Of a stretch of 6,535 nt of DNA, positions 1 to 6,535 are shown one piece after another. The first letter of the stretch is position 1. Each line of letters starts with the position of its first letter. The translations under genes were made by a program, and so were the position numbers. Under the pieces are notes generated by a model, which saw only the letters and a list, made by a program, of their open reading frames with translations, searched no databases and was not told the origin of the DNA. The DNA is from a virus (Duplodnaviria; Heunggongvirae; Uroviricota; Caudoviricetes): IMG/VR virus record IMGVR_UViG_2657245634_000021, positions 1-6,535 of that record; one strand, written 5' to 3'.

Positions 1-1101
1 ATGAAATTTACCGTAGAACGTGAGCATTTATTAAAACCGCTACAACAGGTGAGCGGTCCGTTAGGTGGTCGTCCTACGCTACCGATTCTCGGTAATCTGC
101 TGTTACAGGTTGCTGACGGTACGTTGTCGCTGACCGGTACTGATCTCGAGATGGAAATGGTGGCACGTGTTGCGCTGGTTCAGCCACACGAGCCAGGAGC
201 GACGACCGTTCCGGCGCGCAAATTCTTTGATATCTGCCGTGGTCTGCCTGAAGGCGCGGAAATTGCCGTGCAGCTGGAAGGTGAACGGATGCTGGTACGC
301 TCCGGGCGTAGCCGTTTTTCGCTGTCTACCCTGCCAGCGGCGGATTTCCCGAACCTCGATGACTGGCAGAGTGAAGTCGAATTTACCCTGCCGCAGGCAA
401 CGATGAAGCGTCTGATTGAAGCGACCCAGTTTTCTATGGCGCATCAGGACGTTCGCTATTACTTAAATGGTATGCTGTTTGAAACCGAAGGTGAAGAACT
501 GCGCACCGTGGCAACCGACGGCCACCGTCTGGCGGTCTGTTCAATGCCAATTGGTCAATCTTTGCCAAGCCATTCGGTGATCGTACCGCGTAAAGGCGTG
601 ATTGAACTGATGCGTATGCTCGACGGCGGCGACAATCCGCTGCGCGTACAGATTGGCAGCAACAACATTCGCGCCCACGTTGGCGACTTTATCTTCACCT
701 CCAAACTGGTGGATGGTCGCTTCCCGGATTATCGCCGCGTTCTGCCGAAGAACCCGGACAAACATCTGGAAGCTGGCTGCGATCTGCTCAAGCAGGCGTT
801 TGCTCGCGCGGCGATTCTCTCTAACGAGAAATTCCGCGGCGTACGTCTTTATGTCAGCGAAAACCAGCTGAAAATCACCGCCAACAACCCGGAACAGGAA
901 GAAGCGGAAGAGATCCTCGACGTTACCTATAGCGGTGCGGAGATGGAAATCGGCTTCAACGTCAGCTATGTGCTGGATGTTCTGAACGCGCTGAAATGCG
1001 AAAACGTCCGCATGATGCTGACCGATTCGGTTTCCAGCGTGCAGATTGAAGATGCCGCATCACAGTCGGCTGCCTATGTTGTCATGCCAATGAGACTGTA
1101 A
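1..1101 (+). CDS. dnaN: DNA polymerase III beta sliding clamp (DnaN), full length 366 aa
   Basis: Intact ORF from ATG at 1 to TAA at 1099-1101. The translation ([37 protein letters not shown]...VVMPMRL) matches my recollection of E. coli DnaN over its whole length. Its stop overlaps the next start as TAATG, as in the native dnaN-recF arrangement. Confidence 0.96.
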
Positions 1102-1601
1102 TGTCCCTCACCCGCTTGTTGATCCGCGATTTCCGCAACATTGAAACCGCGGATCTCGCTTTATCTCCCGGCTTTAACTTTCTGGTAGGTGCCAACGGCA
1201 GTGGCAAAACCAGCGTGCTGGAAGCCATCTATACGCTCGGCCATGGTCGGGCGTTTCGCAGTTTGCAGATTGGTCGCGTCATTCGCCATGAGCAGGAGGC
1301 ATTTGTTCTCCATGGGCGATTACAGGGCGAAGAGCGCGAGACGGCGATTGGCTTAACCAAGGACAAACAGGGCGACAGCAAAGTCCGCATCGACGGTACT
1401 GACGGGCATAAAGTCGCGGAACTGGCGCACCTGATGCCAATGCAGCTGATAACGCCAGAAGGGTTTACTTTACTCAACGGCGGCCCCAAATACAGAAGAG
1501 CATTCCTCGACTGGGGATGCTTTCACAACGAACCCGGATTTTTCACCGCCTGGAGCAATCTCAAGCGATTGCTCAAGCAGCGCAATGCGGCGCTGCGCCA
1601 G
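1101..1601 (+). pseudogene. recF: recF 5-prime fragment (about the first 167 codons), fused in frame to phage-derived sequence
   Basis: ATG at 1101 overlapping the dnaN stop. N-terminus [38 protein letters not shown] carries the RecF Walker A motif (GANGSGKT). RecF-like sequence is recognisable up to ...[14 protein letters not shown] (ending near 1601); after that the protein no longer resembles RecF, and the distal two-thirds of RecF (about 357 aa in E. coli, from memory) is absent. The hybrid ORF continues to a TGA at 1899-1901. Confidence 0.85.
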
Positions 1602-1901
1602 ACAAATGCGGAGCTGTACGAGTACCGCGAACAGAAAATTGCCGCCGGTTTTACGTGTCTGGCGGACGTCCCGGCGGACGATATCGACGGTGAAAGCATC
1701 AAAGTTTTTTACTACGAGCGCGCCGTGTGTGCGATGGCGACCGCGTCGCTTTATGAGCGTTATCGCGGCGTGGATGCCAGTGCGAAAGGTGACAAGAAGG
1801 CTGACAGCATTGACAGCACCATTGATGAGCTGTGGCGGGATATGCGCTGGGCGGTGGCGCGTATCCAGGACAAACCGCGCTGCATCGTGAGTCAAATCTG
1901 A
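1602..1901 (+). pseudogene. 3-prime fragment of the P2-type phage late gene upstream of X (probably head completion protein gpL), 5-prime end missing
   Basis: Same reading frame as the recF fragment. Translation [99 protein letters not shown] is unrelated to RecF. Its stop overlaps the start of X (TGATG at 1899-1903). Assignment to L is by position in the P2 late gene order (L-X-Y-K-lysA-lysB-R) and is not verified by search. Confidence 0.55.
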
Positions 1902-2104
1902 TGAAGACCTTTGCGCTACAGGGCGACACGCTCGACGCCATTTGTGTCCGGTATTACGGGCGCACTGAGGGCGTGGTCGAAGCCGTGCTCGCCGCAAATC
2001 CGGGACTGGCTGAACTGGGTGCAGTGCTGCCGCACGGCACCGCCGTCGAACTGCCCGACGTTCAGACCGCGCCCGTGGCTGAAACTGTCAATCTGTGGGA
2101 GTAA
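1901..2104 (+). CDS. X: P2-type phage tail protein X (gpX), 67 aa
   Basis: ATG at 1901 overlapping the upstream stop. Translation MKTFALQGDTLDAICVRYYGRTEGVVEAVLAANPGLAELGAVLPHGTAVELPDVQTAPVAETVNLWE matches recalled P2 gpX. The ORF-track start at 1832 is rejected as an upstream extension. Confidence 0.85.
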   Translation: MKTFALQGDTLDAICVRYYGRTEGVVEAVLAANPGLAELGAVLPHGTAVELPDVQTAPVAETVNLWE

Positions 2105-2107
2105 CGC

Positions 2108-2389
2108 ATGACAGCAGAAGAAAAAAGCGTCCTGTCGCTTTTTATGATTGGGGTGCTGATTGTTGTCGGCAAGGTGCTTGCCGGTGGTGAACCCATCACC
2201 CCGCGTCTGTTTATCGGGCGCATGTTGCTCGGTGGTTTTGTCTCGATGGTTGCCGGTGTTGTTCTGGTGCAGTTTCCTGACCTGTCACTGCCTGCGGTGT
2301 GCGGCATCGGCTCCATGCTGGGTATCGCCGGTTATCAGGTGATTGAGATTGCCATTCAGCGCCGCTTTAAGGGCAGGGGGAAACCGTAA
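2108..2389 (+). CDS. Y: P2-type holin (gpY), 93 aa
   Basis: ATG at 2108 with a GGGAG Shine-Dalgarno 6 nt upstream. The product is hydrophobic with membrane-spanning stretches (LSLFMIGVLIVVGKVLAGG..., GGFVSMVAGVVLVQF..., GIGSMLGIAGYQVI) and a basic C-terminus (RRFKGRGKP), typical of holins. Position and size fit P2 Y. Confidence 0.85.
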   Translation: MTAEEKSVLSLFMIGVLIVVGKVLAGGEPITPRLFIGRMLLGGFVSMVAGVVLVQFPDLSLPAVCGIGSMLGIAGYQVIEIAIQRRFKGRGKP

Positions 2390-2886
2390 TGCCGGTAATT
2401 AACACGCATCAGAATATCGCCGCCTTTCTCGACATGCTGGCGGTGTCCGAAGGGACGGCAAATCATCCGCTGACGAAAAACCGGGGCTATGACGTGATAG
2501 TCACCGGACTGGACGGGAAGCCGGAAATTTTCACCGACTACAGTGACCACCCGTTCGCGCATGGCCGACCGGCGAAGGTGTTTAACCGTCGCGGTGAAAA
2601 GTCCACGGCCTCCGGTCGCTATCAGCAGCTTTACCTGTTCTGGCCGCACTACCGCAAACAGCTTGCCCTGCCGGATTTCAGTCCGTTGTCACAGGACAGA
2701 CTCGCCATTCAGTTGATCCGCGAACGCGGTGCACTGGATGACATCCGGGCGGGACGCATTGAGCGCGCCATTTCACGCTGTCGCAATATCTGGGCGTCCC
2801 TGCCGGGTGCCGGTTACGGTCAGCGTGAGCATTCACTGGAAAAACTGGTCACCGTCTGGCGTACCGCTGGCGGCGTACCGGCTTAA
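2389..2886 (+). CDS. K: P2-type endolysin (gpK), 165 aa
   Basis: ATG at 2389 overlapping the Y stop (TAATG). Translation MPVINTHQNIAAFLDMLAVSEGTANHPLTKNRGYDVIVTG... matches recalled P2 gpK lysozyme. The holin-endolysin order is canonical. Confidence 0.9.
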   Translation: MPVINTHQNIAAFLDMLAVSEGTANHPLTKNRGYDVIVTGLDGKPEIFTDYSDHPFAHGRPAKVFNRRGEKSTASGRYQQLYLFWPHYRKQLALPDFSPLSQDRLAIQLIRERGALDDIRAGRIERAISRCRNIWASLPGAGYGQREHSLEKLVTVWRTAGGVPA

Positions 2887-2900
2887 ACGGAGTAAACACC

Positions 2901-3326
2901 ATGAAGAAATTATCCCTTTCACTGATGCTGAACGTGTCGCTGGTGATGATGCTGGCACTGTCCCTGATTTACCCGCAGAGCGTGGCCGTCAGTTTTGTCG
3001 CCGCCTGGGCGATTCTGGCGACGGTTATCTGTGTGGTTGCCGGTGGTGTCGGCGTGTATGCCACCGAGTATGTACTTGAACGCTACGGGCGGGAGCTGCC
3101 GCCGGAATCGCTGGCCGTGAAGATTGTCACGTCGCTGTTTTTGCAGCCGGTGCCGTGGCGCAGACGGGCGGCGGCTCTGGTGGTGATGGTGGCGACGTTT
3201 ATCTCGCTGGTCGCTGCCGGGTGGATTTTTACTGCGCTGATTTACCTCGTGGCGTCGGTGTTCTTCCGGCTGATACGTACGGCCTGTCGTCAGCGTTTTG
3301 AGGGGCGGGAACCATGTCAAAGCTGA
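2901..3326 (+). CDS. lysA: P2-type lysis accessory membrane protein LysA, 141 aa
   Basis: ATG at 2901 with GGAG upstream. The product is strongly hydrophobic with several predicted transmembrane segments. Position immediately after K matches P2 lysA. Confidence 0.8.
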   Translation: MKKLSLSLMLNVSLVMMLALSLIYPQSVAVSFVAAWAILATVICVVAGGVGVYATEYVLERYGRELPPESLAVKIVTSLFLQPVPWRRRAAALVVMVATFISLVAAGWIFTALIYLVASVFFRLIRTACRQRFEGREPCQS

Positions 3327-3784
3327 TGATTGTGCTGGTCGTGTTGTTATCGCTGGCGGTGGCCGGTCTGTTTCTGGCGAAGCATGAAAACGCCAGCCTG
3401 CGCACCTCGCTGGACAGGGCGAACAACGTCGCCAGCGGGCAGCAGACGACCATCACCATGCTGAAAAATCAGCTTCATGTTGCCCTCACCAGAGCAGACA
3501 AAAACGAGCTGGCGCAGGTGGCACTGCGTCAGGAACTGGAGAACGCGGCGAAGCGTGAAGCACAGCGCGAGAAAACCATCACGAGGTTACTGAATGAAAA
3601 CGAAGATTTTCGCCGCTGGTACGGCGCTGACCTGCCTGATGCTGTGCGCCGGTTGCACCAGCGCCCCGCCTGCACCGACGCCAGTGATTGTCCCCAACGC
3701 CTGCCCGAAAGTGAGTCTTTGCCCGATGCCGGGCAGCGCCCCGGAGACGAACGGCGATTTAAGTGCCGATATCCGGCAGCTTGA
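3314..3784 (+). CDS. lysB: P2-type LysB, Rz-like inner-membrane spanin, 156 aa as read
   Basis: ATG at 3314 overlaps the lysA 3-prime end by 13 nt. N-terminal transmembrane segment (MSKLMIVLVVLLSLAVAGLFLA) followed by a charged, probably helical periplasmic region, typical of i-spanins. Position matches P2 lysB. Confidence 0.8.
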   Translation: MSKLMIVLVVLLSLAVAGLFLAKHENASLRTSLDRANNVASGQQTTITMLKNQLHVALTRADKNELAQVALRQELENAAKREAQREKTITRLLNENEDFRRWYGADLPDAVRRLHQRPACTDASDCPQRLPESESLPDAGQRPGDERRFKCRYPAA

Positions 3785-3884
3785 GAACGCGCTGGCGCGC
3801 TGTGCCAGCCAGGTAAAAATGATTAAACACTGTCAGGACGAAAACGATGCTCAAACCCGACAGCCTGCGCAGGGCGCTGACTGA
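3594..3884 (+). CDS. lysC: P2-type LysC, Rz1-like outer-membrane lipoprotein spanin, 96 aa
   Basis: ATG at 3594 with GAGG 7 nt upstream, in an alternative frame inside lysB, extending past the lysB stop and into the start of R. Signal peptide with a lipobox-like Cys (MKTKIFAAGTALTCLMLCAGC) followed by a Pro-rich segment (TSAPPAPTPVIVPNACP), hallmarks of o-spanins. Confidence 0.75.
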   Translation: MKTKIFAAGTALTCLMLCAGCTSAPPAPTPVIVPNACPKVSLCPMPGSAPETNGDLSADIRQLENALARCASQVKMIKHCQDENDAQTRQPAQGAD

Positions 3885-4149
3885 TGCCGTCACGGTGCTG
3901 AAAACCAGTCCCGAGATGCTGCGGATATTCGTGGATAACGGGAGTATTGCCTCCACACTGGCGGCGTCGCTGTCATTTGAAAAGCGTTACACGCTCAATG
4001 TCATTGTGACCGACTTTACCGGTGATTTTGACCTGCTCATCGTGCCGGTGCTGGCGTGGCTGCGGGAAAATCAGCCCGACATCATGACCACCGACGAAGG
4101 CCAGAAAAAGGGCTTCACGTTTTATGCAGACATCAACAATGACAGCAGC
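3847..4149 (+). pseudogene. R: P2-type tail completion protein gpR, 5-prime fragment (about 100 codons), 3-prime end replaced
   Basis: ATG at 3847. Translation MLKPDSLRRALTDAVTVLKTSPEMLRIFVDNGSIASTLAASLSFEKRYTLNVIVTDFTGDFDLLIVPVLAWLRENQPDIMTTDEGQKKGFTFYADINNDSS matches recalled P2 gpR. The remaining 24 codons of the ORF (to 4224) are low-complexity and are the antisense of a well-formed ParA-like coding sequence, so I place the breakpoint near 4147-4160. The endpoint is approximate. Confidence 0.7.
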
Positions 4150-4361
4150 TTTGATATCAGCATATCAAATTTCTCAACAAGGGTTATTGCTGGTAACAGT
4201 CCTGCAGCTTCTCGTTCCGCATGATGTTTTGCGGCTGTTCGTTGTAGATCTCCGTTTAACAGGCAGACTTCCCTTCCTTTATTTGCTAGAGCAATAGCCA
4301 GGTTTGATGCAATGGTAGTTTTCCCTGAACCACCTTTGTTCCCACCAACTACAGTAATCAT
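4150..4361 (-). pseudogene. ParA-like (type Ib, deviant Walker A) partition ATPase, N-terminal fragment of about 70 codons
   Basis: Minus-strand ATG at 4359-4361 with GAGG 5-8 nt upstream. Translation MITVVGGNKGGSGKTTIASNLAIALANKGREVCLLNGDLQRTAA... has the deviant Walker A KGGSGKTT (4314-4346) and the downstream D-x-Q region typical of ParA/MinD/Soj ATPases. The ORF ends after 79 aa where it runs into antisense P2 R sequence; intact ParA proteins are about 200 aa or more. Confidence 0.7.
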
Positions 4362-4589
4362 TGCAACCTCATAAATATGATGTGTGAAGTATGATGATAT
4401 TTTGACACGGTAACCTGAGGTGTCAATATGTGTTCATATTTATGAAGTATGAAATATGAAGTGTGTCATGTGATGTAATAAATAATACTTGTGTTTTGTG
4501 ATTTCATAACTATGATAGTGCTCAAATTGAGTATTACATTGCAACCAGAAACAATGATTTACTCAGATTGAGTATTTAAGGGGCTATAG
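4362..4589. promoter_or_regulatory. AT-rich divergent intergenic region with iteron-like repeats; candidate parC-type centromere and promoter/operator
   Basis: Four copies of the octamer TATGA(A/T)G(T/A) at 4376, 4390, 4441 and 4455, as two pairs with 14-bp spacing. The pairs flank a 7-bp inverted repeat TTGACAC (4402-4408) / GTGTCAA (4420-4426) that presents TTGACA, a perfect -35 hexamer, on both strands. A TATGAT -10-like hexamer sits at 4511-4516 and an AAGGGG Shine-Dalgarno at 4577-4582 before the parM ATG. Function is inferred by analogy with R1 parC, where ParR-bound iterons flank the promoter. Confidence 0.5.
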
Positions 4590-5561
4590 ATGAACGTATA
4601 CTGCGATGATGGTTCAACAACAATCAAGTTGGCATGGAATGATAATGGGGAAATCTGTAAGTCGTTGTCGCAAAACTCATTTCGTCATGGATGGAAGGTT
4701 GACGGGTTAGGAATTCGCCAGACATTTAACTATGAACTGGATGGTAAAAAATACACGTATGATGAAGTTAGCAACCAATCTATTCTTACGACTCATATTG
4801 AGTATCAATATACGGATGTTAACCTGTTAGCTGTGCATCACGCTTTACTGAATAGTGGATTAGCGCCTCAGCCTGTATCATTGACTGTGACTTTGCCTAT
4901 CAGTGAGTTCTATACGAAAGAGTGTCAAAAAAATGAACTCAACATTCAGCGTAAAATTGAGAATTTAATGGGGCCGATTCGTCTTAATAAAGGCGATGTT
5001 TTCACCATTGAACACGTTGATGTGATGCCTGAATCATTGCCAGCTGTGTTTTCTCGTCTGGTCGTGGATAAAGTTGGTCAGTTCGAAAAATCGCTGGTAG
5101 TTGATATTGGCGGCACTACGCTTGATGTTGGTGTTATCGTTGGTCAATTTGACTCTGTAAGTGCCATTCATGGTAATTCTGGCATTGGTGTATCTTCAGT
5201 TACGAAAGCTGCAATGAGTGCATTGCGCATGGCATCCAGTGATACCAGTTTCCTCGTTGCAGATGAATTGATTAAACGTCGTAATGACCCGGACTTTGTT
5301 CGGCAGGTTATAAATGACGAAACAAAAACTGATCTGGTCCTTAATACCATTGAGGGGGCTATTGCCAGTTTGGGGGAGCAAGTAGTCAATGAGCTCGGTG
5401 ATTTCCATCATGTGAATCGTGTTTATGTTGTCGGTGGTGGGGCCCCGTTGATCTATGATTCGATAAAAACGGCATGGCACCATCTTGGGCAAAAAGTAGT
5501 GATGATGGAGTCGCCACAGACAGCACTGGTTGAAGCTATCGCGGCTTTCAAAGAGGAGTAA
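4590..5561 (+). CDS. parM: ParM/StbA-family actin-like plasmid segregation ATPase, 323 aa
   Basis: ATG at 4590 with an AAGGGG Shine-Dalgarno. Actin-fold phosphate-binding motifs DDGSTTIKL near the N-terminus and VVDIGGTTLDV mid-protein. Collinear similarity to recalled plasmid R1 ParM (for example FNY, YQYTDVN..AVHHALL, FTI..V.VMPES.PA, GVS.VT, VVGGGA). Confidence 0.9.
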   Translation: MNVYCDDGSTTIKLAWNDNGEICKSLSQNSFRHGWKVDGLGIRQTFNYELDGKKYTYDEVSNQSILTTHIEYQYTDVNLLAVHHALLNSGLAPQPVSLTVTLPISEFYTKECQKNELNIQRKIENLMGPIRLNKGDVFTIEHVDVMPESLPAVFSRLVVDKVGQFEKSLVVDIGGTTLDVGVIVGQFDSVSAIHGNSGIGVSSVTKAAMSALRMASSDTSFLVADELIKRRNDPDFVRQVINDETKTDLVLNTIEGAIASLGEQVVNELGDFHHVNRVYVVGGGAPLIYDSIKTAWHHLGQKVVMMESPQTALVEAIAAFKEE

Positions 5562-5565
5562 TATT

Positions 5566-5958
5566 GTGGACGATGAACGGAAAAGGAAAAAATACACACT
5601 TTATCTGCATCCGGAAAAAGCTGCAGACTTTCAAACTTTGGAAGCGATAGAGTCCGTTCCGCGTTCTGAGCGTGGTGAGCTGTTCCGGAATGCATTTATT
5701 TCTGGAATGGCGTTACACCAACTTGATCCTCGCCTGCCTGTATTGCTGACTGCCATTTTGAGCGAGGAGTTTTCAGCAGATCAGGTTGTAACCTTACTCA
5801 GTCAGACGACTGGATGGAAGCCTTCTCAGGCCGATATCAGAGCTGTGTTGACTGAACTCGGTGCTTCGCAATTTGCTGAAAAAATGCCTCCTTCTGCTAC
5901 TGATTCGGTGCAGGAGGCAATGAATGATGTGCGTCTTAAAATGAAAAAATTATTCTGA
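5566..5958 (+). CDS. parR: ParR/StbB-like centromere-binding adaptor protein, about 130 aa
   Basis: Proposed GTG start at 5566, 7 nt after a strong AAGAGGAG Shine-Dalgarno formed by the last parM codons; stop TGA at 5956-5958. The segment ESVPRSERGELFRNAFISGMALHQLDPRLPVLL resembles R1 ParR (SIPQGERSRLNRAALTAGLALYRQDPRTPFLL, from memory). The ORF-track ATG at 5530 lies inside parM with no Shine-Dalgarno and is rejected. Confidence 0.75.
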   Translation: MDDERKRKKYTLYLHPEKAADFQTLEAIESVPRSERGELFRNAFISGMALHQLDPRLPVLLTAILSEEFSADQVVTLLSQTTGWKPSQADIRAVLTELGASQFAEKMPPSATDSVQEAMNDVRLKMKKLF

Positions 5959-5969
5959 TATATCAGAAT
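5944..5969 (-). terminator. Possible weak intrinsic terminator for the minus-strand umuC-like gene
   Basis: Perfect 18-bp palindrome ATTCTGATATATCAGAAT (5952-5969) about 20 nt past the umuC-like stop (5990-5992), followed on the minus strand by a U-tract (complement of AAAAAA at 5945-5950). The stem is AU-rich and has no real loop, so terminator strength is doubtful. It overlaps the parR stop codon. Confidence 0.3.
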
Positions 5970-5989
5970 GAAGCAATGGGGATCTCAGT

Positions 5990-6535
5990 CTATTGTGTTG
6001 TATACGAAGGCGATAGCATTTCCTGTTTCATTTGCCATTCAGGGGCGGTTCCTCGCCCCGCAAACCACACTTTCCCTTTTCCCGACTGGTTCAGTTCATC
6101 GAGTGTTTTCATTAACTTTTCACTGTTTTTACGGGGCTGGATTTCATCAAATAATCCCGGCTGCGCTATACCCGATGGTGTGAAATCAGCCAGCATGACT
6201 CCTGCCTTCATATAGCGGTACCCTTCACGCCAGACATGGTTTAAGGCTCTGCATGCGGCGGCAATAATGTCCCGGCTGTCCTGTGTGGGCAATGAAAGCT
6301 TTTCCACAGCGGCATTGCTGTAACAGGGTTCTTTTACTGCAAAGGGGGATGTCCGTACAAATGTCGTCACCTGCCGGCAATACTGACGCTCCCCACGTAG
6401 TTTCTCTGCGGCCCGCTCAGCATACTGAACAACAGCCTGGTGCATGGCATCTTTGTCTGTGATTCGTTCACCAAAACTGCGACTACAGACAATCTGCTGT
6501 TTTGCCGGTGGTGCTTCTTCCAGGGATATGCAGGA
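5990..6535 (-). CDS. umuC: UmuC/MucB/ImpB-family Y-family DNA polymerase (Pol V catalytic subunit), C-terminal about 180 codons; 5-prime end beyond the window
   Basis: Minus-strand frame is open from the window edge (6535) to the TAG at 5990-5992; I translated 6446-6535 by hand (SCISLEEAPPAKQQIVCSRSFGERITDKDA) and it continues into the ORF-track protein. The sequence RSFGERITDKDAMHQAVVQYAERAAEKLRGERQYCRQVTTFVRTSPF...VWFAGRGTAPEWQMKQEMLSPSYTTQ is collinear with the recalled UmuC C-terminus (RAAEKLR, TSPF, FAGQG..QWQMK..MLSP.YTT). Confidence 0.85.
   Translation of the reverse strand, partial: SCISLEEAPPAKQQIVCSRSFGERITDKDAMHQAVVQYAERAAEKLRGERQYCRQVTTFVRTSPFAVKEPCYSNAAVEKLSLPTQDSRDIIAAACRALNHVWREGYRYMKAGVMLADFTPSGIAQPGLFDEIQPRKNSEKLMKTLDELNQSGKGKVWFAGRGTAPEWQMKQEMLSPSYTTQ

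Follow-up and report, generated by a model that had tools for sequence, protein, structure and literature searches.

A chromosome-prophage-plasmid mosaic from Escherichia coli is most likely the end of a mis-joined draft contig

In P2 (Peduovirus), the late region follows the canonical gene order L-X-Y-K-lysA-lysB-lysC-R. The pAA-type virulence plasmid pDEC15A-1 carries a ParM/StbB partition locus by umuDC. Chromosomal, prophage and plasmid DNA can come to lie on one molecule in plasmid-chromosome or prophage-plasmid cointegrates (Hfr-type, IS- or integrase-mediated), and those that are known arise where IS copies, att sites or long stretches of homology are present. In misassembled draft contigs, pieces are usually brought together by repeat- or k-mer-mediated misjoins. 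The stretch of 6,535 nt analysed here (the window) resembles each of these in part. It corresponds to positions 20704-27238 of contig CCBW01000004.1 (27,240 bp; assembly GCA_000939035.1), whose 3' end it forms, and its sequence is indeed a mosaic of three blocks that abut at two points. We conclude that the window joins chromosome, prophage and plasmid pieces of one E. coli strain, and that it most likely represents a mis-joined contig of a low-quality public draft assembly and no genuine genomic island or mobile element.

Many E. coli chromosomes have a dnaN-recF region that matches block 1 (1-1601) at 100% identity. The block starts with a complete dnaN (1..1101, + strand; 366 aa), encoding the DNA polymerase III beta clamp, which matches Pfam DNA_pol3_beta domains 1-3 and shows 100% identity to the dnaN annotated in many E. 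coli. The following 5' fragment of recF (1101..1601, +) comprises codons 1-167 of 357; its exact match to recF stops at 1601 and its first 167 residues are those of RecF. At this point, junction J1 (1600..1601) joins recF to P2 gene L, the 2 nt "AG" being common to both sources in a three-way alignment. The break falls after codon 167 in recF and before codon 71 in gpL, and the result is an in-frame chimeric ORF of 266 aa (1101..1901, +), RecF(1-167) plus gpL(71-169), with Pfam matches to SMC_N (residues 3-120) and Phage_GPL (159-266) and supported by a prefix/suffix identity test. Some RecF fragments of the same protein cluster are also exactly 167 aa long; these reflect homopolymer frameshifts and have no connection with J1.

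Block 2 (1600-4163) is a head/lysis/tail segment of a P2-like prophage, identical at 2564/2564 positions to the prophage of strain 15A and 97.5-97.8% identical to P2-group phages, with canonical gene order. On its + strand lie the genes for tail protein X (1901..2104; Pfam Phage_tail_X and 15A prophage annotation), the P2-type holin gpY (2108..2389; Pfam Phage_holin_3_2 and 15A annotation) and the endolysin gpK (2389..2886), which has no Pfam match and is annotated as glycoside hydrolase family 104 in 15A and in phage records. They are followed by lysA (2901..3326, +; PF28015 LysA in precomputed gene calls, 15A annotation) and by a 156-aa variant of the Rz-like spanin gene lysB (3314..3784, +), assigned to the LysB family by a cluster look-up in which it occurs on more than 100 contigs, and flagged as a pseudogene in the 15A annotation. 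The Rz1-like lysC (3594..3884, +; PF23793 LysC, 15A annotation carried over by coordinates) overlaps lysB. The last gene is a 5' fragment of the tail completion gene R (3847..4163, +; codons 1-105 of 155), which matches Pfam P2_Phage_GpR at 1-107 of the 133-position profile and ends where the exact prophage match stops, at 4163; the ORF continues to 4224 through antisense plasmid DNA. Unlike the P2 late region, the window thus holds a 2.56-kb internal slice, L'-X-Y-K-lysA-lysB-lysC-R', cut within L and within R, while integrase, cos, capsid and tail genes and an att site are all absent from the window. In finished 15A and in the independent draft AIHP01000031.1 (GCA_000250515.2) the prophage is intact and encodes full-length gpR. 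P2-like blocks do occur on natural plasmids.

Junction J2 (4163..4163) places gene R head-on to a parA-like gene of block 3 (4163-6535), with 1 nt, "T", common to both sources; only the first 105 codons of gpR and the first 66 of the parA-like ATPase remain. Block 3 is a segment of pAA-type plasmid (parA-like', parM, stbB, 'umuC), collinear with pDEC15A-1. The parA-like AAA ATPase fragment (4163..4361, - strand; codons 1-66 of 214) gives Pfam matches to CbiA/ParA/MipZ N-terminal parts only and is assigned by the pDEC15A-1 annotation; its ORF runs on to 4122 through antisense gpR. The gene is intact in strain 15A. Next comes an AT-rich intergenic region (4362..4589; GC 0.33-0.39) with short direct and inverted repeats (D1, D19, I10) upstream of parM, which from its sequence may serve as promoter and parC-like centromere. 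The single mismatch between block 3 and pDEC15A-1 falls here, at position 4538. The gene for the actin-like segregation ATPase ParM/StbA (4590..5561, +; Pfam StbA_N and ParM_N, pDEC15A-1 annotation) and a stbB-like gene for a plasmid stability or partition adaptor (5566..5958, +; PF10784 Plasmid_stab_B, pDEC15A-1 annotation) complete a partition locus of ParMRC type, with the ATPase, the adaptor gene downstream and the repeats of the putative centromere upstream. The block closes with the 3' fragment of umuC (5990..6535, -; last 181 codons), since the contig ends 2 bp beyond the window. The differences from pDEC15A-1 are thus that the divergent parA-like gene abuts phage DNA and that umuC is cut by the contig end. 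This exact umuC truncation occurs in only two draft contigs, CCBW01000004.1 and CDRY01000017.1, and we therefore rejected the idea that the common end marks a lineage-wide IS boundary.

The initial annotation had viewed the mosaic as drawn from three sources of differing composition. Chromosome, phage and plasmid pieces are present as it proposed, but they represent three compartments of one genome and not three donors: every piece is at least 99.96% identical to the chromosome, prophage or plasmid of strain O111:H21 15A. Each segment is also collinear with its own place in the finished 15A genome, including the whole 'mnmE..recF' block of CCBW01000004.1, of which block 1 is the end (7138/7138 identical to the chromosome). 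In that genome dnaN-recF, pDEC15A-1 and the P2-like prophage, which sits between cpxP and fieF, are separate places; the prophage lies about 248 kb from recF in opposite orientation, so that J1 is an inversion-type join, and recF-gyrB is intact. As for composition, GC is 0.547 in block 1, 0.580 in block 2 and 0.439 in block 3. A change of compositional character is thus seen only at J2; the 3-mer distance between blocks 1 and 2 (0.255) lies within the range for halves of a single block (0.24-0.37).

Several searches addressed the way in which the blocks could have been joined. In agreement with the initial annotation, both breakpoints lie in coding sequence, and the ORFs and Pfam matches of the window include neither an integrase nor a transposase; searches for tRNAs, for Rfam RNAs and for direct or inverted repeats flanking any block found none. 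An IS or composite transposon finds no counterpart here, as transposase and inverted repeats at the block borders are missing and the native sources explain every junction base. The fall in GC at J2 and the mixed functional content could be explained by a natural genomic island, or by a mosaic put together through horizontal transfer from chromosome, phage and plasmid donors. This explanation is already contradicted and we give it practically no credit, because the window has no recombinase gene, no insertion at a tRNA or att site, and neither att repeats nor a target-site duplication, one strain's own replicons match every block at about 100% identity, the arrangement is found in no finished replicon, and the junctions truncate four genes (recF, L, R and the parA-like gene). 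Known cointegrates differ in the same respect, for no junction here shows an IS, an att site or homology.

Blunt joins of random 2.5-7 kb fragments of one genome and the in-frame RecF-gpL fusion would be in keeping with engineering or cloning of strain 15A DNA, such as a cosmid or fosmid clone with several chimeric inserts or a fusion construct made by design. We nevertheless regard this origin as very improbable. No vector backbone, marker or cloning scar was found, and plasmid matches are only to natural pAA/IncF-type plasmids; adaptor, lox, FRT, att, Gateway and primer motifs are absent, and the six break ends have no restriction site in common. The search for scars of restriction, ligation, adaptors or site-specific recombination at these ends was fruitless, two native sources account for all bases of the junctions, and the upstream part of the contig is ordinary chromosome for at least 9 kb. 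Where the initial annotation had favored an engineered construct, a chimeric assembly or an artificial concatenation over a natural island, the evidence thus narrows the choice to the chimeric assembly: the window does not look engineered and, as part of a public draft contig, is not an artificial concatenation.

With 2 nt shared at J1 and a single nt at J2, the overlaps fit chance for blunt joins. Microhomology-mediated joining was considered and dropped, as three overlaps of 1, 2 and 1 nt do not significantly exceed the chance level (P ~0.08 for all three being at least 1 nt), and an apparent 14-nt overlap reported by BLAST at J2 contains 6 mismatches, i.e. similarity of only 8/14. Nor do the block ends look like repeat boundaries, the natural ends of contigs in an assembly graph: native DNA just past both break ends of J2 is single-copy in 15A, and recF, mnmE and yfiR are single-copy genes. 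J1 does not derive from a short local deletion either, since the several complete-genome records with the P2 block at 10-14 kb simply begin inside the prophage (cpxP-fieF), and in 15A about 248 kb separate it from recF on the opposite strand.

No record in the complete-genome, plasmid and phage collections covers more than 39% of the window, and J1 or J2 is spanned by none of 5,426 complete E. coli genomes, 72,556 plasmids and 50,697 phages. The 38-40-mers of the junctions are likewise absent from contigs of GTDB species-representative genomes and from metagenome contigs. In a collection of 15 billion proteins J1 is found on one contig only, private to one assembly, and its reciprocal product, gpL(1-70)-RecF(168-357), is missing. 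J2 is present in two draft assemblies, as CCBW01000004.1 and CDRY01000017.1, and in the IMG/VR copy of the latter. All records of the junction proteins come from the NCBI copies of these contigs, and none from Logan or ENA read assemblies; the LysB variant of the same prophage is recorded in Logan/ENA read assemblies. A single natural replicon running across both junctions, which would have spoken against the initial annotation, was thus not found. The only spanning record is the unfinished draft contig itself; as this is no verified natural replicon, the annotation is in substance not contradicted by it.

The remainder of CCBW01000004.1 and the sister contig are informative in this respect. 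A third gene-cutting breakpoint, J0 (yfiR'/'mnmE), lies 7,137 bp upstream of J1 and is spanned by no complete genome, so that the contig has at least three breakpoints within 12 kb. CDRY01000017.1 (assembly GCA_001373235.1), composed of fimbrial usher, P2 and plasmid pieces, is 100% identical to CCBW01000004.1 over 4,936 bp and has two breakpoints in 6 kb. It keeps J2, reads through the site of J1 in gene L, and thus lacks J1; its left join (J1') is a different one. Ten columns at J1' read NNNTNNGNNN. The native agg3C and native P2 continuations differ in eight of these columns, all of which are N, and the two columns where they agree are called. Because the Ns track the disagreement of two native sequences, J1' is a consensus over conflicting reads, of the type produced by software, which shows that both native configurations were present in the CDRY01000017.1 sample. 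Cross-genus contamination of this assembly was suggested by a match in a Pectobacterium paper and discarded, "CDRY00000000" being there merely a substring of JACDRY000000000.

Our best explanation, with a probability of roughly 65%, is that the window forms the 3' terminus of a chimeric, mis-joined contig from an enteroaggregative E. coli essentially identical to O111:H21 strain 15A. Like other misassembled draft contigs, it has pieces that are collinear with a finished reference and about 100% identical to it, and several breakpoints per contig, located inside genes in unique sequence and seen in no finished genome. The signs of joining by software are the consensus NNNTNNGNNN at J1', the density of breakpoints and the dependence of J1 on the assembly. 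Three separate stretches would have been strung together when the library was constructed, or in the steps of assembly, scaffolding or consensus building, and the fusion ORFs (RecF-gpL, gpR-antisense and truncated ParA-like) would be functionless by-products. We infer that J1 and J2 themselves arose by this mis-joining route. The window differs from the usual repeat- or k-mer-mediated misjoin in its 1-2 nt overlaps; as these cannot come from k-mer overlap errors, chimeric molecules or a joining step outside the graph must be assumed. It also counts against a chimera that J0 and J2 each recur in both draft assemblies, which random chimeras should not do unless the same DNA, library or reads were used.

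This recurrence leads to a mixed case, in which J2 and possibly J0 are genuine private structural variants, J1 is still an assembly artefact, and the window as a whole is still not one existing molecule. A prophage fragment might have been captured by a pAA plasmid, or a plasmid-prophage cointegrate might have formed by illegitimate recombination. J2, the one recurrent junction compared at sequence level, is base-identical and free of Ns in both assemblies, next to a J1' with conflict Ns in CDRY01000017.1, which hints at unconflicted read support for J2. The MnmE-YfiR fusion protein of J0 is found on two contigs, the occurrence of P2-like blocks on natural plasmids is compatible with capture, and the imperfect similarity at J2 has a binomial chance of about 1% (a post hoc hand calculation). 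We still hold the mixed case to be unlikely. J2 is in no other assembly of the collections searched, even though over 100 contigs have this prophage variant, and the junction bears no signature of IS or site-specific recombination. Furthermore, the two drafts may not be independent, given their common private umuC end and their complete identity over 4,936 bp, and the "second sample" of the CDRY contig is only its IMG/VR copy.

If all junctions were real, a chromothripsis-like, homology-independent rearrangement with multiple breakpoints would have stitched oriC-proximal chromosome, P2 prophage and virulence plasmid into one molecule, and a clinical enteroaggregative E. coli isolate would have gained in-frame MnmE-YfiR and RecF-gpL fusion genes. 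That both same-strand junctions are in frame has a chance of 1/9, the joins of CCBW01000004.1 are clean and without Ns, and the pieces all belong to one cell's DNA. Such a scenario is very unlikely, however, as it needs three unrelated illegitimate events in 12 kb, J0 being of duplication or translocation type, J1 an inversion-type join across 248 kb, and J2 a union of chromosome and plasmid. J1 would part dnaA-dnaN-recF' from gyrB, which is essential, and its reciprocal product is absent. The sister draft is without J1, and J1' shows native configurations side by side.

With the chimeric contig as the preferred reading, the biological weight of the mosaic is small, all its genes being well known and the whole most likely not a real molecule. 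It is of more use as a warning about data quality, for these chimeric contigs have spread into downstream resources. Such records will go on turning up in scans for novel islands, phage-plasmids or gene fusions; a quick comparison with a finished genome of the same lineage removes them. The sister contig has been entered in IMG/VR as a viral genome, and RefSeq lists as a "ParA family protein" (WP_283236559.1) the 79 aa encoded by the truncated parA-like ORF with its extension into antisense phage DNA.

Three blocks of DNA abut at two points in the window, J1 (1600/1601) and J2 (4163), and both points lie within genes, as the initial annotation had claimed. The first block (1-1601) carries dnaN (1-1101) and recF codons 1-167 and matches many E. 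coli chromosomes at 100% identity. The second (1600-4163) comes from the interior of a P2-like prophage and carries 'L, X, holin Y, endolysin K, lysA, lysB, lysC and R'. The third (4163-6535) is a pAA-type plasmid segment comprising a truncated parA-like ATPase gene (- strand), parM/stbA, a stbB-like gene and the 3' end of umuC (- strand). Base-by-base alignment leaves 2 nt common to both sources at J1 and 1 nt at J2; a 14-nt overlap suggested by BLAST at J2 turned out to be only 8/14 similarity. At J1, an open RecF(1-167)-gpL(71-169) frame results, while at J2 codon 105 of gpR meets parA-like codon 66 head-on. The blocks had also been described as different in composition. This holds at J2, where GC steps from 0.58 to 0.44, and fails for blocks 1 and 2 in the k-mer and GC check, their difference being no greater than that between halves of one block.

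Judged from sequence identity, the blocks are three compartments of one genome and not contributions of three donors. Reference sequences for all of them are found in the finished E. coli O111:H21 strain 15A. The window lies in a draft contig, CCBW01000004.1 (source of L007), whose 7,138 bp up to J1 ('mnmE-yidC-rnpA-rpmH-dnaA-dnaN-recF') agree with the 15A chromosome at every base. Block 2 is 100% identical to the 15A prophage (2564/2564) and 97.5-97.8% identical to P2-group phages. Block 3 differs from the 15A plasmid pDEC15A-1 by a single mismatch (position 4538, A versus C). In 15A itself, everything is in its native state: the prophage is complete between cpxP and fieF, gyrB follows recF, and nothing interrupts the parA-like gene. 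The prophage also has its native form, with full-length gpR, in an independent draft, AIHP01000031.1 (GCA_000250515.2).

No natural replicon was found to run contiguously over both junctions. In a search of 5,426 complete E. coli genomes (plasmids as well as chromosomes), 72,556 plasmids and 50,697 phage genomes, no single record accounts for more than 39% of the window, and neither GTDB species-representative genome contigs nor metagenome contigs contain the exact 38-40-mers over J1 and J2. Exact look-up of the RecF-gpL fusion protein returned one contig, CCBW01000004.1 (27,240 bp; NCBI draft GCA_000939035.1). The window corresponds to its positions 20704-27238, and the contig ends 2 bp further on. 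Because the window is part of a deposited draft contig, it is not an artificial concatenation, one of the origins initially proposed. The J2 proteins are also present on a sister draft contig, CDRY01000017.1 (L006; 5,996 bp, GCA_001373235.1). The IMG/VR copy of that contig is byte-identical, Ns included; it is therefore a re-import and adds no independent observation.

The window contains no integrase, transposase, tRNA or Rfam RNA, and no repeats bracket the blocks, in agreement with the reported lack of mobile-element hallmarks; a natural island is effectively excluded. We consider an engineered or cloned origin, also envisaged before, highly improbable. Such an origin would have to leave no vector or scar: adaptor, linker, lox/FRT, Gateway and vector-primer motifs are absent from the junctions, and no restriction site is common to the six native break ends. 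Two other accounts were rejected. J2 is not a repeat boundary, the native DNA past both of its break ends being single-copy in 15A, and the records that had suggested a prophage close to recF, with J1 as a short deletion between the two, simply begin inside the prophage.

The draft contig harbors a third gene-cutting breakpoint, J0 (L007:3364), located 7,137 bp upstream of J1 (window position 1601). Here yfiR' and 'mnmE are joined, with 1 nt shared, in an in-frame MnmE(1-344)-YfiR(143-172) ORF of 374 aa. The partner loci have the same orientation and are separated by more than 1 Mb. None of the complete E. coli genomes spans J0, and records of the fusion protein come from 2 contigs. At the three breakpoints the overlaps (1, 2 and 1 nt) are at chance level for blunt joins (P about 0.08 for all three being at least 1 nt). 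Could all the junctions be real? In 15A, dnaN-recF lies on the + strand at 3.173-3.175 Mb and the L to R segment on the - strand from 2.9265 to 2.9240 Mb, so that a real J1 would represent one end of a 248-kb inversion. The reciprocal product, gpL(1-70)-RecF(168-357), is missing among 15 billion proteins, and three unrelated illegitimate events would be needed within 12 kb. We thus regard this reading as very unlikely.

The two same-strand junctions, J1 (window 1101-1901) and J0 (L007:3270-4394), are both in frame (chance 1/9), and both fusion ORFs end at the downstream gene's own stop. To annotation pipelines they look like plausible genes; no mechanism is implied.

The sister contig consists of 558 bp of agg3C plasmid DNA followed by P2 DNA, J2, the plasmid block and the contig end, the last three as in CCBW01000004.1. 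Its P2 DNA extends 490 bp more to the left than that of the window and runs straight through the J1 site; the presence of J1 thus depends on the assembly. The most telling feature is its left join, J1' (L006:559-568), where the agg3C fragment meets P2 gene M and ten columns read NNNTNNGNNN. All 8 N columns are those where native agg3C and native P2 disagree, and the 2 called bases are the only agreeing positions. As Ns stand only at disagreeing columns, this is a consensus over two conflicting sequence sets. It shows that software created or processed the J1' join and that the sample contained both native configurations.

The chief doubt comes from the recurrence of J2 and J0 in both drafts, which speaks for a different possibility, namely that these two are real private rearrangements. 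The bases at J2 are the same in the two drafts and include no N, and the CDRY contig has conflict Ns at J1' but none at J2. Against this, the drafts show 100% identity over 4,936 bp, and each chimeric contig breaks off at one and the same umuC base (window 6535 / contig end; L002:8387), a truncation point present in no other contig of the collection. The common end points to a strain, data or pipeline shared by the two drafts, or else to another breakpoint or gap hidden at this site. One strain, or even one data set, may well underlie both. We find real J2 and J0 rearrangements unlikely; were the drafts independent isolates, this would become the more likely reading of J2 and J0.

Chimeric draft assembly is the explanation we favor, with a probability of roughly 65%. 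The broader artefact interpretation of the initial annotation is thereby supported and narrowed. Chromosome, prophage and plasmid pieces from a single strain would have been joined in library preparation, assembly, scaffolding or consensus building, and the fusion ORFs would be by-products. The data show the sources and breakpoints, the absence from finished replicons, the breakpoint density, the assembly dependence of J1 and the consensus conflict at J1'; a common route of origin for J1 and J2 is inferred. The arrangement fits the familiar pattern of misassembled contigs, whereas it failed every test as a genomic island, IS-mediated mosaic, complete prophage or engineered construct.

The practical point is that the presumed artefact has already spread to RefSeq and IMG/VR. 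A 79-aa ORF (window 4122-4361, - strand), made of 66 ParA-like codons and antisense gpR, stands in RefSeq as WP_283236559.1, 'ParA family protein'. The chimeric CDRY contig stands in IMG/VR as a viral genome, IMGVR_UViG_2690316066_000017 (L018).

Well-known families cover the genes of the window (beta clamp, RecF, P2 late/lysis cassette, ParM/StbB-type partition locus, UmuC). That every gene has such a family, as initially stated, is borne out by annotation and not by the Pfam scan, since the endolysin (2389-2886), LysA (2901-3326) and LysB (3314-3784) had zero hits in the library copy scanned. NCBI annotation names them as GH104, DNZ54_00345 family and LysB, respectively, and precomputed gene calls assign PF28015 to LysA. 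The lysB gene (+ strand) encodes a 156-aa variant with altered and extended C-terminus, the usual length being 141 aa. Although the 15A annotation marks the gene as a pseudogene, this exact protein occurs on more than 100 contigs, which makes it a widespread allele of the prophage and not an error of this contig. The AT-rich stretch 5' of parM (4362-4589; GC 0.33-0.39) contains short direct repeats, CTCAAATTGAGTATT-like and ATGTGTGAAGTATGA-like, and an inverted repeat, and is probably a parC-like centromere with promoter. The sole pDEC15A-1 mismatch of the plasmid block falls inside it.
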